A DNA stretch of 64,000 nucleotides from a virus (IMGVR_UViG_3300028048_000066:1-64000); one strand, 5' to 3'. Counted from the stretch's first letter, positions 1,624 to 22,021 are shown. Program-made: numbers and translations. Notes: generated from the letters alone by a model not told the origin.

Positions 1624-1638
1624 TGCTAAATTAAATGA
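1624..1638 (+). promoter_or_regulatory. Putative phage late promoter TGCTAAATTAAATGA
   Basis: Exact 15-mer that recurs in intergenic gaps upstream of structural-region genes. Confidence 0.8.
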
Positions 1639-1661
1639 TAAAGAAGATACTAGGAGAACAT

Positions 1662-4600: not shown

Positions 4601-5012
4601 AGATGATTATATTGAATACTATTTTGAAAACAACCACAGTTTTGATGATTGGGATGGTGATTTTCCATATTTAGTTAATTTTGATTATATTGTAGGCGAT
4701 ATGGAAAAACTAAATAGTGCAGAGGAGTTTTGGGAACTTACAAAGTCTGGTTTAAATAAATATAACTACTTTATATTTGCAGATGATAGTTGGGATGGAA
4801 ATTTTGAAGTGCACTGTCATACAAACTTTAGTGATGCTCTAATAAATATGTGGCAATTAAACTTTTGGTGTGATGGTAATTTTAGTGAGTTCATAAAAGA
4901 GTTTGCAAAATATTGTTTGAATGAGATTAAATGGTGGATAACAAAGACAGATGAAATTGATATACAACCATATCTCAATTTAGGGTTTACAGAAGAGTTT
5001 TTAACTAAATAA
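1662..5012 (+). CDS. Modular polyprotein: DUF3841-like, multiple ADP-ribosyltransferase-like domains, PcfJ-like domain
   Basis: Start moved from 1635 to the ATG at 1662 after AGGAG. Motifs LYRGT..GIFFS, LFHGT..GCVYLT and YEASAKYGKNTKWCIS. Modules are bounded by LEEES, VDESLTES, VIESISEA and IDESLNES. Confidence 0.7.
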   Translation: MNLLFEGFKDYYKRLEEESGGSSIIYTYQSPKVLKQLKSGKTYIANYDRGMIGKEPYIELARVLGLNDCPIFCGLTIDDTNRMLEASGLEKYGKELLKLKVPNKYIHKMAYYDWTDYIYFWIDKQEEDYISKEDAENSLRNFSGQAPCQVVIDRIEPSWLVDESLTESDDSKQIKLNNNVYVFVPIEMLSTISREGLKDFVFSNVSNLSSLNSLLRWYDKNLYKLGTNFSGIGYIVDEKKYILLTINSSNLDYSKIKPYNKSWLEELYYYDGVVSFDNINVIDSIAGSWGSSNWMFKNKTKHYDNFDFLVNQEELKELKTQGDVLDYLINLILSDLDATSAFCNLYYRRMGIDNNMYLFRRESDKEQKRILKNMFSDNIVEIKGRKSPENRKQVVYLYRGTSERTFSKNFESYAGIFFSTKRSAVSGWGETKKYLLKSDAKIYRGDDSSDNFCSAYYNKEYPELQKCFGMYFGDLKIKKISDFSKLTKEQKDYLEDRVEQQAGTQFCWYDVWTWCTQLVARIELEKQGYDGAYWTLEDFGNPEQYQIWNLDAVKSYDGVIESISEAKQSKPELEVVDYRDWTEHTKLKDVLDIWSSYYYVGKKALKTLQLFHGTTDYNWKKIKKAGAIKPKKSKNFNASKNGCVYLTYSEDDAYEFVGRATDFNTGVVVMEIDINKLDLDKLYIDTNIEEYTVYEDENGKEYWDFWAFEYYGEIPENAWINVDIDESLNESKQDTLNFKNWVEDKVSELGMRDGGNKDSYVNSWVNGFEKNRSRLKAPFNDYYYWIKQNNWDEFTKAFSEISKKDDTKQKEKEGAKLLYNKDDWKVYEITTYEASAKYGKNTKWCISGSKRWNNGENGTKYWNDYTKQGCKFYFFIKNNTEKYALVVYPDDKEYEIFNQDDVPLAYIPNAPDVKEIPVNYNEDVDSELKEFTNLFVQHKLPNEDFIIENVIGKINGDCDGYMLYMYSPKDAYNEFREDVPDDYIEYYFENNHSFDDWDGDFPYLVNFDYIVGDMEKLNSAEEFWELTKSGLNKYNYFIFADDSWDGNFEVHCHTNFSDALINMWQLNFWCDGNFSEFIKEFAKYCLNEIKWWITKTDEIDIQPYLNLGFTEEFLTK

Positions 5013-5030
5013 AAAATTTTCATAAACACA

Positions 5031-5059
5031 TTTAAATTCTATTTCAATTGTTGTATAAT
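5031..5059 (+). promoter_or_regulatory. sigmaA-like -10 element (TTGTATAAT) in an AT-rich intergenic region
   Basis: TATAAT at 5054-5059; weak -35. Confidence 0.45.
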
Positions 5060-5107
5060 ATAATAGATAATAATAAATATAATACTAGATATAATATTAC
5101 TATTAAA

Positions 5108-5168
5108 ATATTTTGCTAAAGCAAAATATCGTAAACATCATTAGATGTTTACTTTATAGTATTATAAA
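5108..5168. repeat. Three tandem inverted repeats
   Basis: ATATTTTGCT/AGCAAAATAT (5108-5129), GTAAACATC/GATGTTTAC (5131-5152), TTTATA/TATAAA (5153-5168). Confidence 0.8.
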
Positions 5169-5188
5169 CATATAGATATAAAAATAGA

Positions 5189-5203
5189 TGCTAAATTAAA
5201 TGA
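5189..5203 (+). promoter_or_regulatory. Putative late promoter TGCTAAATTAAATGA
   Basis: Exact motif copy. Confidence 0.8.
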
Positions 5204-5235
5204 TAAAATATATAAATATGGAGATATAGTATACT

Positions 5236-6804
5236 ATGATACCTAGAGAAAGAAGTATTAAAGAAAGAGATATTGAAGTAAAAGATGACAATATTGATGA
5301 AATTGAAGCAACAACATATGATGAATTATCTAAAATAGAAGATGAAACAATAGAAGAAGATGAGAATGCTATTGTTGATACTATTTATAAATTATCACAT
5401 ATTAGAGATATAGATGGAGAAGACACACCATCTTATTGTTTTGTTCACGACATTACAGATACATTTGGTTTAAGTGAAGATGAAGCAGTAGGAATTGCTA
5501 AAGACAATGGTTATGTTGTTTATGAGATTTTACCAAATGGGGATGTAGATAGTGGGTTAGTTATTGCAGATAGGGATTGTTCAAAAGATTTAATTAGCAC
5601 AGACTATGAGAAATTCTTTGGTGTAGAAATTGAAATCAAACCTTATGGAGAAGAAGTTGAAGATAAGGTTGAAGTAGAAGAAACACCAGATGAAATAGAA
5701 GTTGAGAAAGAAGTTGAAGTTAAAGATGAACCAGTAGAAGAAGCATTAGATAATATTAAGAATAATGATACTTGGGAAGAATCACTTAAAGAAGATAAAG
5801 GAAGTTTTGATTTAGTAAAAGAAATCACAACAGACCCAGATGCAGAGAAATATATTGCACAAAATGGTAAGACCTGTTATAGAGTATTTGGAACATTAAA
5901 TTGGTATTTCTATAAATGTGAACAAGCAGGAATTAAACCAGTTCAAGAAGATGATTTCTTATATACAGCAAAAGGAAATGGTTATGAATTTGATTGGGTA
6001 GAAGAAGATTGCATTTTAGCATTAGATAAACCATTAAAAGAGAGCAAAAAACTTAATGAAATGCACTCAGTTCAAGATTATAAGGGTTATGAACTTGATT
6101 TTAATGAAGATTCAATTCACGATATGTTAGAATTAGGTTTATCTAACTATGTTGATAAAGATTTAATAGAGATTACAAAAGATGGTAAACACATTGCTTG
6201 GGCAAAGAGTTATTCTGATGCTAGAAAGATTGTTGATGAAAAAACAAAAGAAGATGAAGTACAAAAACCAGAAGAACATCCTATCACAGTTATTTTTAGA
6301 ACTCTAGGTAATTATAAAGTAGGAGAAATAAAGAACACATTGCGTAGTTATCAAAAAGCAGTTGGTGGGTATATAGATGCTTTTGCTTTCCCAGGAAGAG
6401 ATGATATTGATATTGTTCATAGAGAATATGGAGATAAAAAAAATGAAGCATTAGTTATTGTAGGTCTTAATAAGGATACAAACTGTTGGTGCAGTCTAAC
6501 ACAAGAACAAATTGATTATGTAATGAATTATGTAAAAAATAATGTACTAGAGTCATATGGTGATAATGTTTTACATATTGGATTGCCTGTTACAATGAAT
6601 GGTGATAAATTAAAGAAATTCAACACAAAGAGTGGTATGGATAGATATAAAAACTCAAACAATGGTTACAGATTCCAATATTATAAAGTACCAAAAGATG
6701 AGTTCAAATATGCAAAGAAAGAAACAAAAGATGATGAACAAGCATTTTTCAAACTTCAAGATAGTGGAAGAGCAGTAGAAGAAGAAAAGAAAAATAACGA
6801 ATAA
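5236..6804 (+). CDS. Acidic modular polyprotein with a DUF3846-like module
   Basis: GGAG RBS. EIKNTLRSYQKAVGGYI..ALVIVG..SLTQEQID module. VEEA, EESLKED, LKES, LNEM and VLES motifs. Confidence 0.7.
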   Translation: MIPRERSIKERDIEVKDDNIDEIEATTYDELSKIEDETIEEDENAIVDTIYKLSHIRDIDGEDTPSYCFVHDITDTFGLSEDEAVGIAKDNGYVVYEILPNGDVDSGLVIADRDCSKDLISTDYEKFFGVEIEIKPYGEEVEDKVEVEETPDEIEVEKEVEVKDEPVEEALDNIKNNDTWEESLKEDKGSFDLVKEITTDPDAEKYIAQNGKTCYRVFGTLNWYFYKCEQAGIKPVQEDDFLYTAKGNGYEFDWVEEDCILALDKPLKESKKLNEMHSVQDYKGYELDFNEDSIHDMLELGLSNYVDKDLIEITKDGKHIAWAKSYSDARKIVDEKTKEDEVQKPEEHPITVIFRTLGNYKVGEIKNTLRSYQKAVGGYIDAFAFPGRDDIDIVHREYGDKKNEALVIVGLNKDTNCWCSLTQEQIDYVMNYVKNNVLESYGDNVLHIGLPVTMNGDKLKKFNTKSGMDRYKNSNNGYRFQYYKVPKDEFKYAKKETKDDEQAFFKLQDSGRAVEEEKKNNE

Positions 6805-6887
6805 TATATAATAAACCGATAAGTGATTTAGGTAATGAAGGTAAATTATTTGTTTATTCAAAGTTACCAAAATCAATAGAGGAAAGT

Positions 6888-7283
6888 ATGAATGAAGATA
6901 TTGAAAAACACGAAACACTAAACCCTTTACTCTGGAATGAAGATAATACATTGAAACCAGAAGTAAAAGAAAAACTTATGCAAATAGCAGATGAGTTTAT
7001 TAAAGGTTTAGAAGAAGACGGTATCAAAATGGATGTGGATGATATTAAGATAGTTGGAAGCAATTGTTCTTACAACTATACAAAAGATAGTGATATTGAT
7101 TTACACATTATAGCAAAAAATATAAAAGCACCAAAAGAAGTGTATGCTCTTTTATATAGTGCTTATAGGTCATTATGGAATAAAAACTATGATATTGATT
7201 TTTACGGTATTCCAGTAGAGATATATGTAGAAACTCCTGAACTAGATACTGTAGAACCAACAACAATAGATGTAGAGGAATAA
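6888..7283 (+). CDS. Pol-beta-superfamily nucleotidyltransferase, N-terminal (catalytic) half
   Basis: GS..(x)..DIDLH motif and a downstream PVEIYVE strand; the frame is also open upstream to 6798. Confidence 0.75.
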   Translation: MNEDIEKHETLNPLLWNEDNTLKPEVKEKLMQIADEFIKGLEEDGIKMDVDDIKIVGSNCSYNYTKDSDIDLHIIAKNIKAPKEVYALLYSAYRSLWNKNYDIDFYGIPVEIYVETPELDTVEPTTIDVEE

Positions 7284-7285
7284 AT

Positions 7286-10117
7286 ATGAAATTAGAAAAG
7301 GTAAATTTAAGAGAAAACAGAATCCTAACAGAAGGCACTAAGTATGATAAACAAGCAGCAAAGATACTTTCAGATTCTGGTTTATTTGATGCAGAAACAA
7401 GCGAAAAGATAATCAATGCTTTATTTAGAGAAGACATTCACGCATTTGTTCACGCACCTAACTGGTTAGAGAAATACTTAAAAGGTATTGCTAGAATGAT
7501 AGTTGAAGAATCAAACGGTGATACAAATAAAGCAAGAGAGTTCTTAATGGAATGTCCTAGTGTATTTGATGAGTATTTAACTTGGATTAGAGAAACTAGA
7601 GATAAAATAGAAGACCAAAAGGAAAAAGAAAAACTTGATGCTGAATTTGTAAACACTATGCATTATAAAGATGTAAAAGATACATTAGAAGATATTCAAG
7701 CACAAAGAGATGAGCAATCAAGACAAGAACTTGCAAATATGAAGTTCAAACAATCAGATTATACATTAGTTCCAATTGATTCATATGAGCAAATGCACGA
7801 CACATATGGTGGTCATTGGACTGGAGATGGTTCTTCTGATAAGTATGCTGGTGGTGGCGGAACTGCTTGGTGTCATACAAACAATAAAGGTGTATATGAC
7901 AGTTGGGTAAGTGGTGGAAATAAGTTCTTTGTATTGCAACATAACGACTGGAAAGATATACCATTCAACCCAAAAACAAATAAAGAAGAAAAAGGTAAGG
8001 ATGCTTATGGTAATTCTTTAATTGCTTTAAGAATATCTCCAAAAGGAAAGATACTAAATGCAACATTAAGATGTAACCACACAGGTGTTCCAGATTTAGC
8101 AGATAACCAATATCGTACTTATTCTGATTTATCAAAATTAGCAGGATTTAATGTTGAAGATGAAATGAAAAAATATTATGACATTAAACCGTTTGATATG
8201 AAGTCATTATTCAAAATAGATGGAAATGGCGTGATGAATCGTGACTATGATTATTATAGAGAGTGGGCAGAAGAGGGCAGTGAAATTACTAAGGTTGTAA
8301 TTCCAGATGGAGTTATAGCATTAGGTGATAGTGTATTTTCTGATTTTCGTTCACTAAAAGAGGTAAAACTTCCAAGCAGTCTTAAAATAATTGGTAGTAA
8401 TGCCTTTTATAATTGTAGTAGTTTAGAGAACATAGACTTACAAGGAATTGAAGTTATTGATGAATATGCTTTTAGAGGATGTAGGCAATTAAGTGCTATT
8501 ACACTTCCAAGCACCATAACAACACTTGAAAATGGTATATTTAATAATTGTGAAAAATTAAAGAGCATAAATATTGAGTGTAGTTTGACTGAATTACCTG
8601 CAGGCATTTTCTATTACTGCTCAGGTTTAGAGTCTATACAATTACCTGAAACATTGGAACTTATTGGAAATGCAGCATTAGGTGGAACAAGCATAAAAGA
8701 GATAACAATTCCAAACGGGGTTACAATTATAGCAGATAATGCATTTGTTTCTTGTAAGAATTTAGAAAAAATAAATTTACCAGAAGGTTTAAAGAGCATT
8801 GGTCGTTCTGCATTTTCTGGTGATGTTTTATTAACTGAAATTGATATTCCTGCTGGTGTCACTACTATTGGGGCTGAAGCATTCCTGGGGAGTGGAATTA
8901 AAAAAATAAATCTTCCTGCTGGAATAAAAGAAATTCCATACTGTGCATTTAATAATAGTGCTATTAGTGAAATTGAGATTCCAAATGGTGTTGAATCAAT
9001 TGGTGAGAGGGCATTCTCCTCATCTTCTCTTATAAAAGTAACAATACCAAGTTCTGTTAAAAAAATAGAAAGTGGAGCATTCTATTATTCATCATTAGAA
9101 GGGACTCTTAAATTACCAGAAGGACTTAATGAAATTGGTGATTATGCATTTAATAGTTGTTCAAACTTAACAGAAATTGAAGTACCAAACAGTGTAAACA
9201 AACTTGTTGGTAATCCATTTGATTGGCATACTATAATAAGAACAGACAATGATTATGTGGTTGAATATTGTATAAATAGAGGCCTTACAGTTGTATCTGA
9301 AAATCAACCAAAAGGAAGACCATATGTAATTTATACAAGAGATGATTATTTAAGAAAATATGGTGATGAAGATATTTCTTTTGAAGATTTTGTAGACAAA
9401 GCATTAAAAGAAATCTATAAGAAATTAGCATTTGTACAAGTTGATAAAGACACATATAACATTGTTGGTAGAAACTTTGTAGATGCTTCTAAACTTCAAA
9501 CATTATTAAAGCATCTTACATCTGGTGATAGAGAAGATGGATATGAAGTTAGATATATTAACAATGAAAATGAATCACTAAATTCAAATGAAAAAACAGA
9601 ACAACTTCAAGAAAAGATTGTAAAGAAGGGTTCTAAATATCAAGTACAAAGTGAAAAAGGAAGAAATCTTGGAACTTATGATACAAAAGAAGAAGCAGAG
9701 AAGAGATTAAAACAAGTAGAGTACTTTAAGCATAAAGATGATATTAAAGAAGCAGTACAAGACCAACCTCTAAAGTCTAATGGAATTTATTCAGTAAAAG
9801 AAGATAAATGGATAAAAGAACCAGTACAAACAGATATTCCAGATATTGACTATGATGCTTTTGAAGAACAATTCAAGGGTTGGGAAGATAGATATTTTGA
9901 TTTAGTAGAGAATGCAGGAGTATCTAATGTAGAAAAGATAGCAGAGATTGAGAACTTAATTGAAGACTTATATAATTTAAGAAAAGAAAGTCTTGCAAAA
10001 GATGGAGAGTATGCTATAGGAAATCTAGTATTTAAAGAAGCAAGAAACTTAGGATACCTAGATGAATTAAAAGAATTAAAAAACGAGTTAAAGAGTAAAG
10101 AATTAAGTTTAGAATAA
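7286..10117 (+). CDS. Polyprotein: PcfJ-like, BspA-type leucine-rich repeats, small beta-beta-alpha module, C-terminal half of the nucleotidyltransferase
   Basis: TAWCHT motif; about 23-aa LP..L..IG..AF..C..L..I repeats (about 8280-9230); C-terminal SNGIYS..KWIKEP..RKESLAKDGEYAIGNLVFKEARNLGYL. Confidence 0.75.
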   Translation: MKLEKVNLRENRILTEGTKYDKQAAKILSDSGLFDAETSEKIINALFREDIHAFVHAPNWLEKYLKGIARMIVEESNGDTNKAREFLMECPSVFDEYLTWIRETRDKIEDQKEKEKLDAEFVNTMHYKDVKDTLEDIQAQRDEQSRQELANMKFKQSDYTLVPIDSYEQMHDTYGGHWTGDGSSDKYAGGGGTAWCHTNNKGVYDSWVSGGNKFFVLQHNDWKDIPFNPKTNKEEKGKDAYGNSLIALRISPKGKILNATLRCNHTGVPDLADNQYRTYSDLSKLAGFNVEDEMKKYYDIKPFDMKSLFKIDGNGVMNRDYDYYREWAEEGSEITKVVIPDGVIALGDSVFSDFRSLKEVKLPSSLKIIGSNAFYNCSSLENIDLQGIEVIDEYAFRGCRQLSAITLPSTITTLENGIFNNCEKLKSINIECSLTELPAGIFYYCSGLESIQLPETLELIGNAALGGTSIKEITIPNGVTIIADNAFVSCKNLEKINLPEGLKSIGRSAFSGDVLLTEIDIPAGVTTIGAEAFLGSGIKKINLPAGIKEIPYCAFNNSAISEIEIPNGVESIGERAFSSSSLIKVTIPSSVKKIESGAFYYSSLEGTLKLPEGLNEIGDYAFNSCSNLTEIEVPNSVNKLVGNPFDWHTIIRTDNDYVVEYCINRGLTVVSENQPKGRPYVIYTRDDYLRKYGDEDISFEDFVDKALKEIYKKLAFVQVDKDTYNIVGRNFVDASKLQTLLKHLTSGDREDGYEVRYINNENESLNSNEKTEQLQEKIVKKGSKYQVQSEKGRNLGTYDTKEEAEKRLKQVEYFKHKDDIKEAVQDQPLKSNGIYSVKEDKWIKEPVQTDIPDIDYDAFEEQFKGWEDRYFDLVENAGVSNVEKIAEIENLIEDLYNLRKESLAKDGEYAIGNLVFKEARNLGYLDELKELKNELKSKELSLE

Positions 10118-10118
10118 G

Positions 10119-10133
10119 TGCTAAATTAAATGA
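10119..10133 (+). promoter_or_regulatory. Putative late promoter TGCTAAATTAAATGA
   Basis: Exact motif copy. Confidence 0.8.
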
Positions 10134-10155
10134 TTAAGTAATAAGAGGTAAATAT

Positions 10156-12303
10156 ATGTCAAAAGAAGTAAAGAAAAGCAATGTAAAGGAATTACCTGGT
10201 CTTAATGGCAATGCTTATTCTGCAAGTAGATATTTATATACAAACATCAAGAAAAGACCTTTAGTAGTTGAATCAAAGAAACAAAAGAAGTTAAATGAAA
10301 AGATTACTTATGAGTTTGATGATAATGGTGGAATTATTGTTTTATCTACTGATGTAAATGCACAACAACTTTCACAAAACAAGTTAATGAATTGGATTAA
10401 GAAGAAAGTTGCAACATTAAAGAATAGAGTTAGTGCAGATAAAAACATCAAGAATGCGGTACTTAATAATGTTCCAGAAACAGGTTGGACAGTAGGTAAG
10501 TATTTAAGAGGAAGATACCACGCAGCAGATGGTAGTGATTTTGATGAAAACTCATTATCAGTTGAATTACTTGGACTACCTACAGATGTTTTAGTTAGTA
10601 TTGCAGAGGACTTATGTAATGAGTTCAAGCAAGAATCAGTTATAGTTAAAGACTACAATAAAAACAAAGTATATATTGTAAATGGTGAAAAAGAGGTAAA
10701 AGAGGAAAGTATGAACGAAGATTATTGGCAAAACACAAGTCACTCAGCAAGAGTTAGAGAGTATGAAGATGGAACAAAAGAGTTATATTCTTATGGAACA
10801 CTTATTGCAACAATCAAACCAGATGGAGATGTTGAATTAACAAGATATTGGGACTATTCCAGAACAACAGGACAACACTTAAGAGATTTCTTGAGAAAGT
10901 ATGGCATTGGAAATTATGGTGCATCTAAAGATATTTACAATGACCTTATAAGAAAGAGAAAGGTAAAGACAGATAACATTGAATTAAGAAAAGCATCAGC
11001 ACTAGACAATGCAATAGAGTGTATTAGATTTGGTGATGGTGATAAAGATGAATGTGACTGGTGTGGACTAAGTGAAAAAGACTTTGATGAAATTTGGAAA
11101 CAAGCAAAGAAAGAAGTAAGAGAATTAAATAAGAAAAAGAAAAATAATACAAATAAGAAGGAAGATAAAGAAATGAAAGAAGCAAAGTACACACAAAGAC
11201 CAGAGAAGTTAATCAAAGAGTCTAAAGATGAGTTTGATATTAAAGACTATTTAGACATTGAGTTAGAAGATGATAATTCAGGTGAAGGTGGAATTGAGTT
11301 TGAAGGTGAAACCGTAAGAGATTTTATTGGATATTGTGGTTATGATGAAGATGGAAATTTTGATGTAGAAAATGCAGATGAATATTGTAAACCAATAACA
11401 TCATTGAAGCAATTAAATAAAGAATTAAAGGACTGTGGTATTAAACCTTTGAAATCAAAGAAATCCATTAAAGAAGATTTTGAAGATGTTGAGTACGAAG
11501 AAGAAATTGAGTTTTTTGGTGGTGATGAAGGTGATTTAGATGTAGAAGACTTCATAAGTGAAAACGAAGATTGGTTATCATCTGATTATGAAGATTATTA
11601 CTATGACTGGGATGATTATAGAAAGGGATATGTTTTATATGGTATAGTTAATAAAGTTAAAGATTTGTCTGATGATGAATTACTTGATTATATTGTAGAC
11701 AACTTTGAAGAAATTACAGGTAAACCAGTAGATGTTGTATATAATGAGTATGATGAGAATGATGATGCACAACCAATATTTGACCAAGATGGAATTGATG
11801 CAACAAGTGATAAAATAAGAGATTTCTTGTCAACAATAGCAAAAAAATCAGATAGAGAAATTGATGATTTATTTTATAAGTTAGATGATATTTTGACAGA
11901 TAGATTGTCTGAATCTTGTGAAAAGAAGTCAATTAAAGAAGGTAGAGCACAAATTTATCAAGATATGGAAGATGAGTACTTTGATGCATTAGCAAAAGCA
12001 GAAAAAAGTGGAAATGTAGAATACTGCGTTTTAACAGATACAGATGAAGAATGCTTTGGTAATTTTAAAAAGGCAGTTGAATTTGCAAAGAAAAATGGTG
12101 TAGATGAAATTGAAATCAAACCTTTTACAGTCAATCTTGGATACAACTATTTCTTAGATGATTATGACACAGAAGATTACAAAGGTGTTATTGTTGATTT
12201 AGATATGAATATTATTGATTATCTTGATGAGTCTTGCAAATCAAAGAAACTTACAAAGAAAGTAGTAAGAGAGAGCAAAGCAAATAAAAACAATAAGAAA
12301 TAA
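10156..12303 (+). CDS. Acidic modular polyprotein, candidate internal virion protein
   Basis: GAGGT RBS; many [ILVM]xE[SADG] sites; modules include ..LCNEFKQESVIVKD and LYSYGTLIA..YSRTTGQH. Confidence 0.75.
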   Translation: MSKEVKKSNVKELPGLNGNAYSASRYLYTNIKKRPLVVESKKQKKLNEKITYEFDDNGGIIVLSTDVNAQQLSQNKLMNWIKKKVATLKNRVSADKNIKNAVLNNVPETGWTVGKYLRGRYHAADGSDFDENSLSVELLGLPTDVLVSIAEDLCNEFKQESVIVKDYNKNKVYIVNGEKEVKEESMNEDYWQNTSHSARVREYEDGTKELYSYGTLIATIKPDGDVELTRYWDYSRTTGQHLRDFLRKYGIGNYGASKDIYNDLIRKRKVKTDNIELRKASALDNAIECIRFGDGDKDECDWCGLSEKDFDEIWKQAKKEVRELNKKKKNNTNKKEDKEMKEAKYTQRPEKLIKESKDEFDIKDYLDIELEDDNSGEGGIEFEGETVRDFIGYCGYDEDGNFDVENADEYCKPITSLKQLNKELKDCGIKPLKSKKSIKEDFEDVEYEEEIEFFGGDEGDLDVEDFISENEDWLSSDYEDYYYDWDDYRKGYVLYGIVNKVKDLSDDELLDYIVDNFEEITGKPVDVVYNEYDENDDAQPIFDQDGIDATSDKIRDFLSTIAKKSDREIDDLFYKLDDILTDRLSESCEKKSIKEGRAQIYQDMEDEYFDALAKAEKSGNVEYCVLTDTDEECFGNFKKAVEFAKKNGVDEIEIKPFTVNLGYNYFLDDYDTEDYKGVIVDLDMNIIDYLDESCKSKKLTKKVVRESKANKNNKK

Positions 12304-12326
12304 TAGTAATAATAATGTATAAAAAT

Positions 12327-12359
12327 AAATAGAGTGTTTAGAAGTAGGCACTCTATTTT
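12327..12359 (+). terminator. Rho-independent terminator
   Basis: AAATAGAGTGTTTA-GAAG-TAGGCACTCTATTT. Confidence 0.8.
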
Positions 12360-12381
12360 AATAATTATAGAGAAATATTGT

Positions 12382-12396
12382 TGCTAAATTAAATGA
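12382..12396 (+). promoter_or_regulatory. Putative late promoter TGCTAAATTAAATGA
   Basis: Exact motif copy upstream of the neck gene. Confidence 0.8.
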
Positions 12397-12421
12397 TAGA
12401 AGAATAGCATAGGAGAAATAT

Positions 12422-13144
12422 ATGACATTACAAGAATATGTAGACTTTATAAAGTTCCAATTAACTGGCGGTGTGTTAGAATTAGAGATTTCTGATGATG
12501 CAATTGGAAATGCAGTTAAGATAGCATTAAAAGAAGTTCAAAGATATATTGACACAACAAAGTTAATTACTGTTCCTTATGCTTCTTGTATAGACCTAAA
12601 GGATTTCAAATGTAGTTCTATTGTAAAGGTTTATAGAACAGAAGGATACACAGGAGATGCAGGAACTGATGGATTTATTGAAGGCAGTGCAATAGACCCA
12701 ATGTATGTTCAGAGATGGATGGCATTCTCTGCTGGTGGTACTATGTATAACTTAAATAACTACTTATTGAATTATATGAGTTATAATACACTACTCCAAA
12801 TGAGAAATACAACCACAACTGATATGGCATTTAAAATAGATAAAACTGCTGATAAGTTATATATAAATGCTGGTTACGATTATCCAAAGAGTGTTACATT
12901 AGAGTATGTTCCTATTTATGATACTGTTGATGAAGTAACAAGTGATTATTGGATTGATATTTTAGAAAGATATTCACTTGCTATAACAAAGACTATTTTA
13001 GGAAGAATTAGAACAAGATACACACAATCTAATGCTTTATGGACACAAGATGGAGAAAGAATGTTAGAAGAAGGCAATAATGAACTTTCAGCATTAAGAG
13101 AAATATTAAGAACAAATAGTACATTGTTCTATCCAGTAGACTAA
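12422..13144 (+). CDS. Neck / head-tail adaptor (T4 gp13-like)
   Basis: N-terminal IKFQL.GGVLELEISDDAI..A...AL and C-terminal LGRIR.RY..DGERMLEEG..EL resemble gp13. Confidence 0.7.
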   Translation: MTLQEYVDFIKFQLTGGVLELEISDDAIGNAVKIALKEVQRYIDTTKLITVPYASCIDLKDFKCSSIVKVYRTEGYTGDAGTDGFIEGSAIDPMYVQRWMAFSAGGTMYNLNNYLLNYMSYNTLLQMRNTTTTDMAFKIDKTADKLYINAGYDYPKSVTLEYVPIYDTVDEVTSDYWIDILERYSLAITKTILGRIRTRYTQSNALWTQDGERMLEEGNNELSALREILRTNSTLFYPVD

Positions 13145-13161
13145 TTAAACAGGAGTTATAA

Positions 13162-14778
13162 ATGAGAAATTGTATTTATTTAACAGATGATTTATATAAG
13201 TTCAACACACTTAGTGAAGCATTAAATCACGCACACAAAAACCCAGAAGTCACAAAGATTACAGCAAGAGAAATCTATAATGTCTGTGATGAAGATTTAA
13301 GAGAAGAAGTTGTTTGGGTTAGAAATGAACTAAACGAAAAGAAAGCAAAACTACCTAATGTTATCACAGTTAAAGCAAAAGATTTATTAAGAAAGAACCT
13401 TATTTGTAATGATGACTTAGATAAAATTGAAGACAAAGATGTATTTAATAAAGTAACATCTAAAGTTGGAGATTATTTAGATAACAAGATGGGAAAGGAT
13501 GGAACTTGGAGCAGTTTTGTTATTTCAGTAGAAAGAGATAAAAACGATAAACCAGTAAACTTTGTATGTTCTGGCATTGAGTGGGAAGATGATTCTGTAG
13601 ATGAAGCATCTAAAGTCAATGAAGCATTAGCAAGTGGTAATATAGAAAAAGCAAAAGAACTACAAGATGAACAAGATGCTTTATATGATGAAGCAGATTA
13701 CTGTGATGACCACAATCAACCAGAGAGAGCAATTAGAAGTAGACACGAAGCAAACAAACTCCAAAAGAAAATTGATGAATCACAAGAATTAACAGAATCA
13801 GAAAACAATGTTAAGAATTTAATCTGGTCTAATTATTATGATGACATAGATGTAGATGCTTGGAGAGATGTTTTCGCTGATGAAATTTCTTATGATTATG
13901 ACCTTGATAATCCAGAAGAAAAAGAAGAGTATGAAGCAAGAGTAAATGATGACGATGAAGTTTTTGATTGGGCTATTGGGATGAACAATGACCAATTTGA
14001 AGAAGAAGTTTATATGTTATCTGACATTGAATATCCAAAAGGAATTTTAGTTATAGCAGATTTAGGTTTGTGGAATGGAAATGTTACTGGATATAAAGTT
14101 ATAGAATCAGGAAAACTTGAAGATTGTTTTGAATCAGAAGATGACTATGTAAGATGGTATGTAGACAATGATGATGAATTTGCATATGATGGTTCAAATC
14201 ACGATGGTTCAAATCACTATATTTATAGAGCAATAAGAGAAGATGCAGATGAAGAACTTCTTGATAAACTCTATGATACAATTTATAATGGAAAGTATAG
14301 AAGTAATAGAGGAACTGGTACAGGACAAACAATAAATAAACTTATGTTAGATGAATGTACTAGAAAGATTGGACCAGATATTTTAAGAGAATATGGTATT
14401 GAAGAAGGACTTAAAGAAGGAAAGAAAAAGAAGAAGAAAGACAAAGTAAGATTTGTTGGTAATCCAGAAAAAGAGATTGCATTCTTCAATAATGCTATGG
14501 GAAACCAAGTAGCAACAGCAGATGGTGGTGTTGGTGCAGTATCTATGGGTGAATCAATTGAATCAGATTATCAAAAGATATTAGATAAGCACAACATTGG
14601 TAAGAGTTCTTTTGTTCCTAGCACATCAAGAGAGTGGTGTGATTTAAAGATTATATCAGACACAGATACTTGGGCAGAAGATGAACCAAACTTTACACCT
14701 GAGTTTAGAAAAGATGTTAAGAGTTTTATTAGAAGAAACAAAGACTTCTTCAATAAAGTTGAAAAAGATAATAAATAA
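13162..14778 (+). CDS. Acidic modular polyprotein
   Basis: AGGAG RBS; LNEK, VDEA, VNEA, IDES/LTES, IEEG/LKEG and MGESIES motifs; IADLGLWNG..GYK..HDGSNHY module. Confidence 0.75.
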   Translation: MRNCIYLTDDLYKFNTLSEALNHAHKNPEVTKITAREIYNVCDEDLREEVVWVRNELNEKKAKLPNVITVKAKDLLRKNLICNDDLDKIEDKDVFNKVTSKVGDYLDNKMGKDGTWSSFVISVERDKNDKPVNFVCSGIEWEDDSVDEASKVNEALASGNIEKAKELQDEQDALYDEADYCDDHNQPERAIRSRHEANKLQKKIDESQELTESENNVKNLIWSNYYDDIDVDAWRDVFADEISYDYDLDNPEEKEEYEARVNDDDEVFDWAIGMNNDQFEEEVYMLSDIEYPKGILVIADLGLWNGNVTGYKVIESGKLEDCFESEDDYVRWYVDNDDEFAYDGSNHDGSNHYIYRAIREDADEELLDKLYDTIYNGKYRSNRGTGTGQTINKLMLDECTRKIGPDILREYGIEEGLKEGKKKKKKDKVRFVGNPEKEIAFFNNAMGNQVATADGGVGAVSMGESIESDYQKILDKHNIGKSSFVPSTSREWCDLKIISDTDTWAEDEPNFTPEFRKDVKSFIRRNKDFFNKVEKDNK

Positions 14779-14807
14779 GAAATAAACTATATATAGGAGA
14801 AATAAAT

Positions 14808-17210
14808 ATGAATTATATTGCAGAAGCATTCAAATCACTAGAAGATGTAGATGATAGCATTGTTGTAAGTCAACCAAAGCAAGACATCAAAGAAAGTGTA
14901 AAGAAAGTCAACAATAAGAAATCCATTAAAGAATCTTGTAAACCTATCAAAGAAGATAAAGATTTATTTGAACCAGATAAGAAATACAGTGTTTATGAAG
15001 ACCCAAAGCATTGTGTTGATATGATACACTCTATTATTGCTTATAGTAGAGATTTCAAAGATGGTGAAGATTTAGTTCAAGAGCAAGAACATAAATATAG
15101 AAACTATTTAGACAACTATATTGATGCTATGGGCAGAGATAAAGTTGTTGAGTTAGCAGATATACAAGTAAAAAGACCGCACAAAATTGAAAAGGCAGTA
15201 TATACAGACAGCGAAGGTTTATCATACAATTCTTTAACATTCTTGGATGGACACGAAGATTTATGGTTAGGTGAATCTTGTGAAAAGAAAGCAGTTAAAT
15301 CTAAAAAGTCTTTGAAAGAAGGTTATGCACCAGGATTTTATTGCTATGAAGAGGAAGAAGATTATGAATGTGAAGATGAGGGTGAACTAGAAGATTATGT
15401 AATGGGATTTGAACCATATAATCCTACCATTGAATATTGGTATGATGAGGATGAAGGCGTAGGACACATTACTTGGGAAAGTTCCTCTTATACAGACATA
15501 ACAGATGAAAAAGAGAATTCAATAGACACTGACATCACAGTTAAAGAATTATTAGATATGTGGTGGAATAGTGTAAGAATCAAAGGTGGAAAAATTAAAG
15601 GAACAGCAATACTTTATAAAGATTGTAAAGATGGTTCATATGAATTAGATAAAGACAACAATCCATATGGTGAAGCAATTTTAGATATGGTTGTTCACAC
15701 AAAAGATGAGTGGGATGATGATGGTGATGGATACCCAATCATTTATGCCACAATTGAAGGGGACAAAAAAGAATCTCATAAATCAGTTAAAGAAGAGGCA
15801 TCTTGTAAATTTGTAGTAGTTGCAAACAAGAATGATGATAGAAAAGAATTTGATAGCAAACAAGATGCTATTGCTTATGCTAAAGCACACATAAAAGATG
15901 AACCAAAGGTATTTGATTGTGATAAGAAAGAAATTTGGAACTATCAAACACCTGAATATAAGAATATAAAAGAAGGCAAGAAAGCAGTTAAAGAAGAATT
16001 AGAAATAGATTATGATAAAAATGGTTTACCTAAAGAAATATATGTAGATTATGAAGATTTAGGATTATACGAAGAAGACTACTTAATTTATAATGAAGAT
16101 GTGGACTTCGGAGAAGATGTAAGAAATAGATATGATGAAAAGGAGTTGCTTGAATCTATCAAAGAGTATTTAGATGAAAACTATAAGGATATAAAAGTTG
16201 TAAGTTTTGACTATTCACTAGAAATTAACTGCTACAACCCTAGAGTTTGTATTTGTGATATTGTTTGGGAAGATAAAAAGTCTAAAAAGGAATCTAAAGA
16301 ATCAAAAAAGTCAAAGAAGAAACTTAAAGAAAGTGAATCAATTAACCTTATGGATGATGAAGATATTAAGAAAGGTCAAGAAATCTTAAATTCTGAAAAG
16401 AAAGAAGAAACAGAGCAAATTGTTGATGTAGATGCAGATACAATTGATAAACTCAAAGATTCATATATTGGTAATGTAATTCTTCAATGCCCAATTTGTA
16501 GAACTTTAATCTATAAGAAACCAGACTTACTCAAGAAGGATGAAGAAACTGACATTTATAACAAAGATGAAGAGTGTCCTCACTGTGGTTCTGTAGATGG
16601 ATTTGATTTAGTAGGACAAGTTGCATCTCTTGATGTAGAAGCAGAAGATAAAACAATTGAAACAACAGGAACAGATGTTGAAGTTAAAAAAGACATTGAA
16701 GTTGAAAAAGAACCTGCTAAAACAGAAGAAGAAGATGAAGAAAAAGAAGAATTAAAAGATAAATATGACTTACCAGATTTACCAGATGTTGAAGGTAAAG
16801 AAGAAGAGATTAAGTTTGAGAGTTTAGATAACAGAAAGTTTGATAGACTTGTAAACAGATATGCACATAATGTTTATGAGAACTTCAAGGGATTTAAATC
16901 TACAAACGGAAAGGTAGACAATGAAAAGAATATTATAATTATTGAAGGCCTAATTTCGTTTAAGGATGGAAAAAATGTGAAGACAAGATTTGTATTCAAT
17001 AAACTCACAGAATCACGCAGAGGCGATTTAGTTAAGTTTAGAGGTATAAATGAAACATTCTCAAAAGGTAAGAATGCATTCACACTTTCTGCAAAAGTAG
17101 AAAACAAAGAAATTGTTTGTGAATCTTTAAAATATAACTACAAAGCAAAGTTAAATGAAGAGTTTGTTTTAGTTAAAGGTAAAGTAGACAATAAAGCAAA
17201 AAGAAAGTAA
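14808..17210 (+). CDS. Modular head-associated protein with many IKES-type linkers and a CxxC...CxxC zinc ribbon
   Basis: AGGAG RBS; CPIC and CPHC; Lys-rich KKSIKES linkers. Confidence 0.7.
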   Translation: MNYIAEAFKSLEDVDDSIVVSQPKQDIKESVKKVNNKKSIKESCKPIKEDKDLFEPDKKYSVYEDPKHCVDMIHSIIAYSRDFKDGEDLVQEQEHKYRNYLDNYIDAMGRDKVVELADIQVKRPHKIEKAVYTDSEGLSYNSLTFLDGHEDLWLGESCEKKAVKSKKSLKEGYAPGFYCYEEEEDYECEDEGELEDYVMGFEPYNPTIEYWYDEDEGVGHITWESSSYTDITDEKENSIDTDITVKELLDMWWNSVRIKGGKIKGTAILYKDCKDGSYELDKDNNPYGEAILDMVVHTKDEWDDDGDGYPIIYATIEGDKKESHKSVKEEASCKFVVVANKNDDRKEFDSKQDAIAYAKAHIKDEPKVFDCDKKEIWNYQTPEYKNIKEGKKAVKEELEIDYDKNGLPKEIYVDYEDLGLYEEDYLIYNEDVDFGEDVRNRYDEKELLESIKEYLDENYKDIKVVSFDYSLEINCYNPRVCICDIVWEDKKSKKESKESKKSKKKLKESESINLMDDEDIKKGQEILNSEKKEETEQIVDVDADTIDKLKDSYIGNVILQCPICRTLIYKKPDLLKKDEETDIYNKDEECPHCGSVDGFDLVGQVASLDVEAEDKTIETTGTDVEVKKDIEVEKEPAKTEEEDEEKEELKDKYDLPDLPDVEGKEEEIKFESLDNRKFDRLVNRYAHNVYENFKGFKSTNGKVDNEKNIIIIEGLISFKDGKNVKTRFVFNKLTESRRGDLVKFRGINETFSKGKNAFTLSAKVENKEIVCESLKYNYKAKLNEEFVLVKGKVDNKAKRK

Positions 17211-17239
17211 GAAGTAGATAGCGAAAGGAGTAATAAATA

Positions 17240-17746
17240 ATGGACGGTAGAGATACAGGTTTATTACTAAATCCTAATAATATAAAACTTCATAGGAATT
17301 ACTTTATAGAGATGACTAGACTACTAGGCATCAATGTAATTTATAGAGCACCTAGAGAGGATAAGCACTACAATGGATATGGTGAGTTAGACAGTTTCTA
17401 TTATGAACCTGTTGTTACGAGTTGCATCTTTGATGAACATCCAACACAATGGACAATGAAGAAACTCGGATGGAATAGTGAGTTAAGTGATTCTTTATCA
17501 GTCATTCACATTCCATATGACTTACCAAATATCCAAGTAGGTGCATTATTTATCATACCAAGTGCTGTAGACAATGCAGAAGGAAGATTATTTAGGGTTA
17601 TTAGAATGTCAACAATAAGTGTATATCCTGCTTACATTGCTTGTGAAATAGGTCCAGTGTGGGAAAACACAAACCAAGTTACAGACATTAACTATAAAGA
17701 CCAGAACTTTACAATGCTGGTAGATAATGAGGATGGAGAAGAATAA
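17240..17746 (+). CDS. Neck / head-closure protein (T4 gp14-like)
   Basis: YFIEMTRLLGINVIY pattern; lies between the adaptor and tail terminator genes. Confidence 0.55.
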   Translation: MDGRDTGLLLNPNNIKLHRNYFIEMTRLLGINVIYRAPREDKHYNGYGELDSFYYEPVVTSCIFDEHPTQWTMKKLGWNSELSDSLSVIHIPYDLPNIQVGALFIIPSAVDNAEGRLFRVIRMSTISVYPAYIACEIGPVWENTNQVTDINYKDQNFTMLVDNEDGEE

Positions 17747-17747
17747 T

Positions 17748-18770
17748 ATGTATAATGAATTAAAGTTTAGATATGCATTAAGAGAAGCAGATGGTGAACA
17801 GCCAACAGCACAACCTTCTCAACCAACTGGAGCATCTTCTGAATTAAAAGCATCAGCAAAACTATCTCAAGAAACACTCGCAAAAGTTAATGATGCAAAA
17901 GAGGGTAGACTTAATTGGCAAGAAGTTCAAGATTCTGCAAAGACAAGTGAAGAAAGAAGTGCAATATCTGAAATATTCTTACTAAATAATAAAAACATTC
18001 AACCATACTTACAATATTTACAAAACGGTATGGATATTGTAATTAGTTGGGTAAATCAACTTGGATTCAAAGAAATAAACAATCCATATTTAAAGTTTAT
18101 TCCAACATTCTTTAAGATAGGTGGAAATACATTTAATCTTACAAGAGATGATATTATTGTATGGAATGATATGTATGCTAATGAATTAGTAGATGAAGCA
18201 GATATGATGGGTACTGGAAAAGAAGGTACAGGTCACATTATATTTGATGGTGCTGATGGTGGTTTATATCGTTCTGATGCACAAGGTATGGGTTCTGCTC
18301 AAACTATGTTACAATTCATTAAGTATTATAATTATTTCGGCAATCAAGCAAATGTAGAAAAACTTAATATTCAAGCAATAATGTCAATGGAAAGCGGTCC
18401 ATACCCAAAGAAATTTCAAGAAGCAGGAATTAAGATTGATGAGAAGGGCCATTTAGACAATATACTTAGCAATTATGGTTCAAATACTTGGAAATTAGTT
18501 AGACCTATAATTATGTATAAGTATGATGGGGCATTAAACGATACAGGTGCAAGTCAATTAGAAAGCACACCAGCAAAACTGGTTGAAACATTCTATTATG
18601 TAGATAAAGCATATAAATTAGGACTTGGGACAAGTGCAACTTCAAGTCAATCAAAAGAGGCAAATGATGTTATAACTCGTTTTGAAAATGGCATTAAAAA
18701 CGGAGAGTTTACAAAAGAACAGATAGCACGAATCACACAAACAATGAAAGAAAGAGGTTTATTGAGGTAA
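17748..18770 (+). CDS. Hypothetical virion-region protein
   Basis: Likely start is the ATG at 17748 after GGAG; LREA motif near the N-terminus. Confidence 0.7.
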   Translation: MYNELKFRYALREADGEQPTAQPSQPTGASSELKASAKLSQETLAKVNDAKEGRLNWQEVQDSAKTSEERSAISEIFLLNNKNIQPYLQYLQNGMDIVISWVNQLGFKEINNPYLKFIPTFFKIGGNTFNLTRDDIIVWNDMYANELVDEADMMGTGKEGTGHIIFDGADGGLYRSDAQGMGSAQTMLQFIKYYNYFGNQANVEKLNIQAIMSMESGPYPKKFQEAGIKIDEKGHLDNILSNYGSNTWKLVRPIIMYKYDGALNDTGASQLESTPAKLVETFYYVDKAYKLGLGTSATSSQSKEANDVITRFENGIKNGEFTKEQIARITQTMKERGLLR

Positions 18771-18780
18771 TACAAGATAA

Positions 18781-19182
18781 ATGCAATTAGTAAGTAGTAT
18801 TGAGAGTGAAGAGTTTAATTACAGGATACTACCAACCCTACTATACAAGACTTTGGTAACAAAATATAATAAACTTGTAAAAAGAAAAAGAGTTGGTAAT
18901 ATGAACAACTACTTAAAAGACAATTACAACATAACCTTAGAAGATATAATAAAAAGAAGCAAAATAGTAGTAAATGACAGAGGAAATCAATTTGTTATTT
19001 CTATAGAGCAAAACGAAACAATAAATGGAATACCAATAGAAACTTTAATAAGACTAATTGATTTTGGCAATATGGATATTAAAGGACTAAATCTATTTAA
19101 TTCAACATTTAGATATGTGGAAAGTAGATTAGGAACATTCTTTAGGTATTATATGATAGGGGGTTTTAATAGTGTCAATTAA
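18781..19182 (+). CDS. Hypothetical protein (neck/tail completion region)
   Basis: GAGGT RBS; tightly packed in the operon. Confidence 0.65.
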   Translation: MQLVSSIESEEFNYRILPTLLYKTLVTKYNKLVKRKRVGNMNNYLKDNYNITLEDIIKRSKIVVNDRGNQFVISIEQNETINGIPIETLIRLIDFGNMDIKGLNLFNSTFRYVESRLGTFFRYYMIGGFNSVN

Positions 19183-19810
19183 ATTATATGATGAGGCATT
19201 AGTAGAAAAGATTAAGAAATGGGTTAAAGACCCTAATCTTGCCATATTAAAACCAGATGAGTCAACAAGACTATTACAGATGAAAGCAGATATAGGTGAT
19301 GATAAACCTATTCAATTACCTTTCATTGCAATATCAAGAGATAAAGAAATAAAGATATTAAATACACAGAAGCAACCAAAAACATTTAGTGGATATATTC
19401 TACAAGCATCAAAGAAAACAACAATGACAATAAATGTTGTTCCTATTGAATTAGCGTATCAAATAGACATCTACACAAGAAAGATGGAAGAAGCAGATGA
19501 ATTTATAAGAAACTTTGTGTTTAACTTCATCAACTTACCAAAATTAAAGATTGGTTTACCATATAACAATGTATGGGTAGAACACGAATCAAATTTATGG
19601 ATAGAGGATTCAATTGTAGATAATAGTGATATTACAGAACATTTATTTGCAGACCAATTTTATAGGTTCTCAATTAGACTTTATGTAGATGATGCTTACT
19701 TATTCAGCATACCAAGTAAAGAAACGCCAACCATTGAACTTATTGATTTGGCAGTTGAAGATAGGGAAACGAAAGATATTGTAGAAGATACAGTAATTTA
19801 CAAAAAATAG
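19172..19810 (+). CDS. Tail terminator / sheath stabiliser (T4 gp15-like)
   Basis: LPFIAISR..PIELAYQIDIYTRKMEEADE; immediately before the sheath gene. Confidence 0.65.
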   Translation: MSIKLYDEALVEKIKKWVKDPNLAILKPDESTRLLQMKADIGDDKPIQLPFIAISRDKEIKILNTQKQPKTFSGYILQASKKTTMTINVVPIELAYQIDIYTRKMEEADEFIRNFVFNFINLPKLKIGLPYNNVWVEHESNLWIEDSIVDNSDITEHLFADQFYRFSIRLYVDDAYLFSIPSKETPTIELIDLAVEDRETKDIVEDTVIYKK

Positions 19811-19822
19811 TCAATAATTCTA

Positions 19823-19837
19823 TGCTAAATTAAATGA
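19823..19837 (+). promoter_or_regulatory. Putative late promoter TGCTAAATTAAATGA
   Basis: Exact motif copy upstream of the sheath gene. Confidence 0.8.
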
Positions 19838-19889
19838 GTAAGAATTATTGTTTATAAAGAATAATAATATAGAAGGAGAAAAATAAATT

Positions 19890-21104: not shown

Positions 21105-21122
21105 TAAAGGGGGAAAGAGAAT

Positions 21123-21707
21123 ATGAGTTATGATATTGGTACTTACCATTTAGCCGACAATCCACAATTATTTGAACCAGCAAGAAGTAATAACTTTGAG
21201 TTCATTATTTCAGATATTGACTCATTATTACCAGCAGGTGTAGACCTTCCAACAGATGCAGACACATTAAAGAATTGTCAAGATGTAATTAGATTATCAG
21301 TTGTTAAATCAAGTGTTCCACACTTCACATTGGGTGAAATTGAAGTAAAGCGTGGTAACAACACAATGTACTTCGCAGGTACACCAACATTTGATGCTGG
21401 CACATTAACAGTTAATGACTACATTGGTGCAAAGACAAAGGACATTTTACTTGCTTGGCAAGCACTTGCATATGATGTTATCACAGAAAAAGTTCATCTT
21501 GCAACAAACTATAAGAAGAACTGCACATTGGTTGAATACTCACCAGATTATGACCAAGTTATTAGACAATGGGAATTAAAGGGATGTTGGATTACAAAAT
21601 TATCAGAAGGCGACTTTGACTATGAATCTAATGATAAGAGAACAGTTGATGCAACAATTCGTTATGACAAAGCAATCCCAATTCCAGTTTCAGAAGAAGA
21701 GGCATAA
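21123..21707 (+). CDS. Tail tube protein (T4 gp19-like)
   Basis: PARSNNFE, YFAG.P.F, WELKGCW and YDKA motifs; follows the sheath gene. Confidence 0.9.
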   Translation: MSYDIGTYHLADNPQLFEPARSNNFEFIISDIDSLLPAGVDLPTDADTLKNCQDVIRLSVVKSSVPHFTLGEIEVKRGNNTMYFAGTPTFDAGTLTVNDYIGAKTKDILLAWQALAYDVITEKVHLATNYKKNCTLVEYSPDYDQVIRQWELKGCWITKLSEGDFDYESNDKRTVDATIRYDKAIPIPVSEEEA

Positions 21708-21750
21708 TTGGTATAATAGAAAAGACATAGTAGTTGCTATGTGAAATAGT

Positions 21751-21790
21751 AAAGAATACTGACAAGTAATGTTGGTATTCTTTATATTTT
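21751..21790 (+). terminator. Rho-independent terminator
   Basis: AAAGAATACTGACA-AGTAA-TGTTGGTATTCTTT followed by a T-rich tract. Confidence 0.75.
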
Positions 21791-21804
21791 TATAAATTTA
21801 TAAG

Positions 21805-21819
21805 TGCTAAATTAAATGA
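21805..21819 (+). promoter_or_regulatory. Putative late promoter TGCTAAATTAAATGA
   Basis: Exact motif copy. Confidence 0.8.
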
Positions 21820-21833
21820 AAGGAGTTATGCAT

Positions 21834-22019: not shown

Positions 22020-22021
22020 AA

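Follow-up and report, generated by a model that had tools for sequence, protein, structure and literature searches.

Can the short DNA repeats that recur between the modules of a phage's polyprotein genes act as sites through which whole modules are exchanged? This question is raised by a late gene region in a viral sequence, IMGVR_UViG_3300028048_000066:1-64000, whose 64,000 nucleotides (nt), the whole stretch analyzed, are here called the window and form the initial 64 kb of a virus record that is complete at 148,163 bp and has direct terminal repeats. The virus is a rumen phage (W; its relatives are labeled L006, L005, L003, L004, and L010) with a GC content of 30% and nearly all of its genes on the + strand. 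According to the original prediction, linkers that encode a cleavage site may double as micro-homologies through which modules are swapped in frame, without an integrase. Comparison with relatives leaves cassette shuffling at these linkers well supported, with modules inserted, replaced, lost, and moved between two genes that flank a gp13-like adaptor, and micro-homology as the cause of the swaps is plausible but unproven.

Cassettes and linkers in two late genes

The four repeat pairs (eight strings) behind the prediction were verified, and the two copies within each pair have the same codon phase. They are 6878-6899 and 10701-10722 (pair 1; 21 of 22 bases identical), 11458-11475 and 14916-14933 (pair 2; 18 of 18), 11910-11927 and 15272-15289 (pair 3; 18 of 18), and 15285-15299 and 15978-15992 (pair 4; 15 of 15). 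The flanking modules are indeed unrelated, BLASTP giving no similarity between them. Pairs 2 to 4 are coding DNA of one recurrent inter-module linker family with the consensus [LIV]xE↓SC(E/K)KK…K(S/P)[ILV]KE↓, whose members include LSE↓SCEKKSIKE↓, LGE↓SCEKKAVKSKKSLKE↓, LDE↓SCKSKKLTKKVVRE↓, and IKE↓SCKPIKE↓. Each linker comprises two (L/I/V)-x-E sites of the T4 head-protease type (arrows) bracketing a short lysine-rich spacer, and linkers of this family flank cassettes M1, acid-X, T, A, B, C, and Y. The cassette genes belong to a late, virion-region gene run around a T4 gp13-like head-tail adaptor:

10156-12303, + strand: cassette polyprotein 1, 715 amino acids (aa), with its leader at 10156-10191 and a basic tail at its end
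10192-10704, + strand: SAM-lyase-like cassette, in polyprotein 1
Ending at 11220, + strand: DUF8033 module, in polyprotein 1 (name from precomputed annotation matches)
11221-11457, + strand: cassette M1, in polyprotein 1
11458-11475, + strand: pair 2 copy 1, a KKSIKE linker end (AAG AAA TCC ATT AAA GAA) between M1 and the acid cassette
11476-11643, + strand: "acid" mini-cassette, in polyprotein 1
About 11644-11910, + strand: cassette X, in polyprotein 1
11905-11940, + strand: double-site linker LSE↓SCEKKSIKE↓, holding pair 3 copy 1 (11910-11927) and the right edge of cassette X (11916)
11941-12228, + strand: cassette T, in polyprotein 1, followed by the terminal linker (12229-12273)
12422-13144, + strand: conserved and collinear T4 gp13-like head-tail adaptor, located between polyproteins 1 and 2
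14808-17210, + strand: cassette polyprotein 2, 800 aa, with its leader at 14808-14894
14916-14954, + strand: KKSIKE (pair 2 copy 2, 14916-14933) and then SCKPIKE
14955-15272, + strand: cassette A, in polyprotein 2
15273-15320, + strand: linker ESCEKKAVKSKKSLKE, with most of pair 3 copy 2 (15272-15289, whose first base, 15272, lies in the codon preceding the linker) and all of pair 4 copy 1 (15285-15299)
15321-15764, + strand: cassette B, in polyprotein 2
15795-15965, + strand: cassette C, in polyprotein 2
15966-15995, + strand: linker IKEGKKAVKE, with pair 4 copy 2 (15978-15992); the cassette to its right is Y in W and X in L006
15996-16274, + strand: cassette Y, in polyprotein 2
16275-16331, + strand: Lys-rich linker KKSKKESKESKKSKKKLKE, within which L006 homology restarts (about 16290)
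16332-17207, + strand: conserved C-terminal domain of polyprotein 2

Relatives were found by protein searches, which returned two close lineages, L006 and L005, and the more distant L003, L004, and L010; a megablast search of 5000-17300 against the GenBank phage collection gave no match, and a metagenome scan with the adaptor protein returned only distant relatives (52-67% aa identity), too far for the comparison of DNA junctions. L006 is a 21-kb contig with 82-94% nt identity to W, and L005 is part of a 143-kb scaffold with 71-83% nt identity. Since the L006 arrangement recurs in four samples and W proteins are also encoded on a 148,177-bp contig, both arrangements are real.

In blastn alignments, W and L006 are collinear at 89-93% identity over 6788-11208, 12220-14935, and 16290-23000, and the collinear blocks are broken only in the cassette region. 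Other sequence stands in L006 at the place of W 11209-12219. Directly after KKSIKE, where W has SCKPIKE only, L006 has an extra 122-aa cassette, and 14916-14954 is on this account read as a probable empty slot in W. Cassette B of W is replaced by a different cassette, B', and the slot that holds cassette Y in W (15996-16274) holds cassette X in L006, with 94% identity to W 11652-11916 in the other gene (10156). One cassette has, by this comparison, evidently changed genes between phages less than 10% apart in DNA. In L005, cassette Y is part of the orthologue of gene 10156, and cassette T, terminal in W, has an internal position. For many cassettes of L005 and L006, W has no counterpart at all. 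The order of the modules is thus variable, the relatives differing by cassette insertion, replacement, and gene-to-gene movement. About six events occurred within 5 kb at a DNA divergence of roughly 8-10%, against none in the neighboring 6.7 kb of tail genes.

Some cassettes also occur outside these lineages. The acid mini-cassette (56 aa, EIEFFxGDEGDLD…YRKGYVLY; 11476-11643) is present in polyproteins of other uncultured phages (P0061-P0064), where it stands between ESLKE linkers, and the B' cassette of L006 is likewise found between ESLKE linkers in P0062, indicating that cassettes pass between linkers of two types. In the gene at 14808, the C-terminal 290 aa, which consist of a Zn-ribbon (CPIC…CPHC) and a conserved end domain, are the only part common to about 50 homologues of very different length, and this domain seems to behave as a conserved anchor for variable N-terminal cassettes.

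The breakpoints fall largely where the prediction placed them. By the author's base-by-base reading, 10 of the 12 breakpoints between W and L006 lie at linker edges. Identity ends past ...CCAGAGAAG, just ahead of the [ILV]KE codons (W 11207), and restarts at TAT YTN GAT GAR TCN TGY (YLDESC; about 12217); it ends again past AAGAAATCCATTAAAGAATC at 14935 and restarts at ATCAAAGAA, and ends past GCAG/TTAAAGAA (IKE/VKE) at 15995 to restart at GAATCT (E-S) at 16290. The right edge of cassette X is also at a GAATCT (11916); junctions fall on shared hexamers such as this one. One of the two exceptions, the left edge of cassette X at 11652, is at the end of the acid mini-cassette, known between ESLKE linkers, and is thus a cassette boundary without a linker; the other is a deletion considered below. 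A cruder automatic test, based on the ends of BLASTP high-scoring segment pairs, found 20 of 69 ends no more than 8 aa from a linker, where 8.5 were expected (P < 0.0005).

The repeats and the junctions coincide in many cases. W/L006 junctions abut the repeats at 14935, 11916, 15995, and about 15250-15290, and five of the eight repeat copies (11910, 14916, 15272, 15285, and 15978) abut breakpoints, with the copy at 10701 marking a gene start in L005. The W block 11458-11927 (KKSIKE, acid, X, and ESCEKK) has at each end an 18-mer that recurs unchanged in one of the two linkers around cassette A of gene 14808, and a 23-nt exact repeat in L006 stands directly upstream of both cassettes specific to that lineage.

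The linkers have the features of protease sites. In the cassette genes of all three phages (W, L006, and L005), the motif [KR]x[ILVM][KR]E is about 15 to 40 times as frequent as in composition shuffles. The phage encodes a Peptidase_S77 protease of the T4 gp21 type (PF03420, 53.2 bits, over the cut-off; genome positions 139787-140278), and T4-type head proteases of the gp21 lineage cut after Glu (PMC5694885). Gene leaders are short and end in (L/I/V)-x-E (MSKEVKKSNVKE, MIPRERSIKE), resembling T4 capsid-targeting sequences (PMC3012670, PMC5694885), and internal sites have the same form. These features suggest that the polyproteins are cut at the linkers and that the products are packaged.

Pair 1, which was taken for a linker of the same kind, is probably not a cleavage linker. 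Its two copies are as follows:

6878-6899, + strand: pair 1 copy 1, AGAGGAAAGT ATG AAT GAA GAT, the ribosome-binding site (RBS) and real start codon of a 131-aa gene
10701-10722, + strand: pair 1 copy 2, an in-frame VK-EESMNED junction that carries a Shine-Dalgarno (SD) sequence and ATG

AGGA, GGAG, or GAGG occurs at -17 to -5 in 132 of 170 genes, making AGAGGAAAGT-ATG a typical start region, and the genome as a whole has just five internal GAGG-N4-7-ATG sites that are in frame. The 83 nt upstream of 6888 are left over from a coding sequence that L006 retains whole and in frame, in a counterpart gene with 231 more codons upstream; W lacks L006 1582-2274, 693 nt being lost upstream of 6888. Position 10711 is an in-frame seam that joins the SAM-lyase-like cassette to the DUF8033 module, and the orthologous gene of L005 starts at the equivalent of this seam, behind its own promoter-like motif and RBS. 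Pair 1 is better read as a gene start apparently turned into a fusion seam, with either a working or a fossil start.

DNA identity among the linkers

Peptide conservation and biased codon use could by themselves make linker DNAs alike. The coding DNA of 5236-17210 was compared with three nulls (200-300 shuffles): a synonymous codon shuffle that keeps the proteins, the same shuffle keeping neighboring bases as well, and a permutation of codons within each gene. Three exact repeats of at least 18 nt were observed (the two 18-mers of pairs 2 and 3 and a 19-mer at 5626 and 12106), against 0.17-0.24 expected under the protein-preserving nulls and 0.06 under codon permutation, and no shuffle reached three. 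At a minimum of 15 nt, the five repeats observed did not differ significantly from the 2.3-2.8 expected (P = 0.06-0.15), so that 15-mers alone carry no significance. Among shared peptides of at least 5 aa, 4 of 22 have all codons identical, against 0.68 expected, and both KKSIKE copies of pair 2 use TCC, which accounts for 3% of the Ser codons in the genome. Because repeats of at least 18 nt exceed the nulls and this rare codon is common to both copies, codon bias alone fails to explain the two 18-mers. Identity beyond codon bias thus extends to a few linker pairs (the two 18-mers), and neither to the 15-mers nor to the linkers as a class.

The list of exact repeats adds two entries to those first noticed: the 19-mer and an intergenic 16-mer at 10119 and 12382, which belongs to a promoter-like motif. 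The 19-mer (5626-5644 and 12106-12124) is the longest exact repeat of the region and encodes EIEIKP with all six codons identical; it sits inside two otherwise dissimilar modules, away from the linkers, and is unexplained. Flanking repeat pairs that are collinear, as observed here, arise in 9% of shuffles and carry no information, since the null retains the peptides and with them the collinearity.

In L006, where 0.26 repeats of at least 18 nt are expected, there is one, the 23-mer, with a per-pair probability of about 0.007 for its seven codons alone. Over the three phages, three linker-type peptide pairs are fully identical in DNA, against 0.77 expected, and a typical shared run between linkers is about 8 nt. 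Scans of IMG/VR for the two exact 18-mers returned 11 and 3 matches, all in unrelated contexts and phages and attributable to chance, indicating that the 18-mers are not a widespread portable element there. The excess of DNA identity in W is modest and uneven among its relatives.

Explanations for the linker breakpoints

Homology-assisted joining at the linkers, combined with selection, is an account to which we give about an even chance. New joins would arise on rare occasions, when short stretches of linker DNA that are identical in part recombine or allow a template switch; their shared runs would typically be 6-12 nt (GAATCT, ATTAAAGAA, AAGAAA) and occasionally 15-23 nt; selection would keep those joins that are in frame and still cleavable, and ordinary homologous recombination through longer conserved flanks would carry the cassettes from one co-infecting relative to another. 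Recent events of this sort have probably left their trace in the few linker pairs whose DNA is identical. A bolder reading, in which protease-site linkers double as in-frame recombination sites and whole effector domains are exchanged between slots and genes by the replication and recombination machinery of the phage itself, through the short shared DNA and without an integrase, can be advanced tentatively, its probability falling short of even. Of the proposal that linkers are micro-homologies for module swaps, the modular chains, the linker breakpoints, and the few DNA-identical pairs hold up, and conservation of linker DNA as a class does not. The machinery attributed to the phage is confirmed in part: a RecA/UvsX-type recombinase gene is present (56144-57316, + strand; PF00154, 113.8 bits), and the Pfam UvsY model found no credible match on the genome, contrary to the UvsY-like protein named in the prediction. 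General Pfam/PHROG scans of the ten proteins of 1635-18770, which included no integrase-directed search, gave no integrase match.

Several observations weigh against a role for linker DNA as a recombination substrate. L005 has no repeat of 17 nt or more and no excess of long repeats. In linker-type peptides of the three phages, 105 of 162 codons are identical (65%), against 85.6 expected (53%), and a general DNA-level constraint on linkers was rejected, the Ser codons after Glu at linkers being used as in the genome; as a class, the linkers therefore show no fixation of their DNA at silent sites. The idea that the linkers of one genome evolve in concert, suggested by two orthologous sites that looked homogenized by eye, was dropped, and a longest-common-substring comparison of all linker windows revealed no within-genome excess over non-orthologous between-genome pairs. 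Runs of 6-18 nt are too short for efficient exchange of the RecA/UvsX type and would better suit micro-homology joining or template switching, and the Pfam models for the annealing proteins RecT, ERF, and Rad52 found no credible match on the genome. The presence of the same cassettes between ESLKE-type linkers implies that transfer needs no matching linker DNA. Nor are rearrangements of the region confined to linkers: the second exception among the 12 breakpoints is the 693-nt deletion upstream of 6888, and an insertion of about 830 aa lies inside a nucleotidyltransferase domain, not at a linker.

Much of this is what would be seen if selection acted only as a filter, with recombination being illegitimate and random in position, or proceeding through long flanking homology, and only in-frame joins with flexible, cleavable linkers surviving. 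The DNA-identical linker pairs would then be linker fragments that traveled with a moved cassette, alike by descent and not the substrate of recombination. Selected random recombinants would have breakpoints in linkers exactly as observed, and this explanation also accommodates the genome-like codon use of the linkers, the lack of long repeats in L005, the lack of homogenization, the cassettes found between different linker types, the deletion and the insertion away from linkers, and the X/Y replacement, which lies between long orthologous flanks of 87-93% identity. Against it, the breakpoints resolve to the first or last bases of a linker and not merely to its vicinity, both ends of W 11458-11927 carry the 18-mers of the linkers flanking cassette A, and repeats of at least 18 nt exceed the protein-preserving null. 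We regard a pure selection filter as possible but less likely than not.

Identity could also be uninformative, a coincidence of a Lys-, Glu-, and Ile-rich motif in a genome of 30% GC with few codon choices. This is unlikely: the number of repeats of at least 15 nt is within chance, many KKSIKE copies differ at 1-3 codons, and the same 18-mers turn up by chance in unrelated IMG/VR contigs, but three repeats of at least 18 nt stand against about 0.2 expected, and both the TCC shared by the KKSIKE copies and the 23-mer of L006 are improbable on codon use. A requirement of expression, by which linkers would carry internal RBSs and starts or RNA signals for separate translation of the modules, and so be kept alike in DNA, is very improbable. 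The canonical SD and ATG of pair 1, a real start at 6888 and at the L005 seam, fit such a requirement, but ATG occurs only in this pair, the KKSIKE, ESCEKK, and KKAVKE strings have neither start codon nor SD, and in-frame internal start-like sites number no more than the five counted genome-wide. Homology-assisted joining with selection draws on both the exact breakpoints and the excess of long repeats.

Neighboring genes and related phage systems

The genes of this run, the two cassette polyproteins included, hold several unrelated domains per polypeptide in a late, virion context (DUF3846, LRR_5, DUF8033, nucleotidyltransferase halves, and phrog modules):

5236-6804, + strand: polyprotein gene, 522 aa, with the leader MIPRERSIKE, an N module, an acidic region, and a DUF3846-containing C-terminal part past PLKE↓S
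6805-6887, + strand: non-coding remnant of the deleted upstream module, the same bases being in frame within a 396-aa open reading frame (ORF) of L006
6888-7283, + strand: 131-aa gene, N-terminal half of a nucleotidyltransferase-like module (phrog_36119 positions 19-131)
7286-10117, + strand: 943-aa gene with an N module, BspA-type LRR (LRR_5), a phrog_3684-like module, and the nucleotidyltransferase C-terminal half (aa 831-943)
13162-14778, + strand: 538-aa gene with few linkers, collinear with L006 (89% aa identity) and expanded to 1232 aa in L005

In the gene at 5236-6804, L006 homology restarts directly past LKE (aa 267-269). The nucleotidyltransferase-like module is split in W between 6888-7283 and 9776-10117 (the last 113 aa of the next gene), and the roughly 830 aa that separate its halves have their own RBS and an ATG that overlaps the stop; in L004 and L010 the module is unbroken. 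A Pfam scan (E <= 0.01) of the ten proteins of 1635-18770 found no peptidase family and hence no embedded MPTase domain.

A motif, (G)TGCTAAATTAAATGA, recurs in W at 1622-1645, 5183-5210, 10113-10140, 12376-12403, 19821-19844, 21800-21819, and 30693-30720. It is placed 15-40 nt upstream of gene starts, overlaps the start codon in two genes (1635 and 21816), and is kept upstream of the L005 orthologue (L005 2917-2940); it looks like a late-promoter-type element. Other repeats of the window include a perfect tandem 15-nt duplication at 14188-14217 (GATGGTTCAAATCAC twice, DGSNHDGSNH), which L006 shares, and a paralogous pair, formed by a 132-aa gene (9-407) and the C terminus of a 375-aa gene (433-1560), with 45% aa identity and a 147-nt DNA repeat of 73% identity.

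Full-text literature searches found no published description of protease-linker cassette shuffling. The concept is shared with Botstein-type modular exchange through conserved junctions; what sets W apart is the nature of the junction, a protease-type inter-domain linker within an ORF, and of the exchanged units, which are whole unrelated domains. One of the two closest worked examples is the shuffling of promoter/stem-loop (PeSL) cassettes between phages phi1 and RB49 (Arbiol et al. 2010, PMC2839356; Comeau et al. 2014, PMC4122927). In both cases close relatives differ by insertion, deletion, or replacement of small modules ending at a short repeated element, and the exchange is ascribed to the phage's own recombination, without an integrase. 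PeSLs, however, are intergenic regulatory DNA, tens of bases long and conserved as DNA, whose recombination mini-circles have been detected (PMC2839356, PMC4122927), whereas the W element lies within ORFs, is conserved mainly as peptide, is bound to the reading frame, and is known from sequence comparison.

The other is the in-frame exchange of variable coding segments parted by short conserved motifs in the tail-fiber adhesins of T-even phages, which, in the account of Trojet et al. (2011, PMC3157838, citing Tetart et al. 1996, 1998), shuffle at gp37 motifs and at the glycine-rich motifs of gp38. As described there, the adhesin motifs are structural parts of one folded domain and the swapped units are variable loops; in W, the motifs are protease-site-like inter-domain linkers and the units are whole unrelated domains. 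The cargo arrangement has a counterpart in T4 itself, where IPI-III and Alt place diverse cargo behind a conserved capsid-targeting sequence that is cut off by the gp21 protease (PMC3012670, PMC5694885). W likewise has a gp21-type protease gene, [ILV]-x-E leaders, and diverse cargo behind a short peptide, its packaging and cutting being predicted; in T4, each cargo protein has a small gene and a leader of its own, whereas the modules of W are chained in one ORF with internal double sites. The polyvalent proteins of phages and conjugative elements (Iyer et al. 2017, PMC5512222) similarly unite many small domains, unrelated to one another, in a single late or virion-associated polypeptide, change architecture rapidly, and have been proposed to undergo processing, in their case by an embedded MPTase domain, which was not found in the ten W proteins scanned. 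The main text of that paper does not use the word "linker" and accordingly discusses neither a recurrent linker nor the mapping of breakpoints.

The linkers offer a practical rule, by which the domains of unknown effectors in metagenomic sequences can be delimited by cutting at linkers. Were selection alone to place the breakpoints, the region would still be a clean, nucleotide-resolved case of domain shuffling in phage polyproteins, and it provides a testable model of domain-level mosaicism, extending Botstein-type exchange from genes to protein domains. If the linkers are both cutting sites and exchange points, one short element would account both for the packing of many small effectors into one gene by large phages and for the rapid change of the set. 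The phage would then in effect possess a domain-level cassette system, and the turnover of its head-cargo repertoire could far outpace that of the remaining genome.

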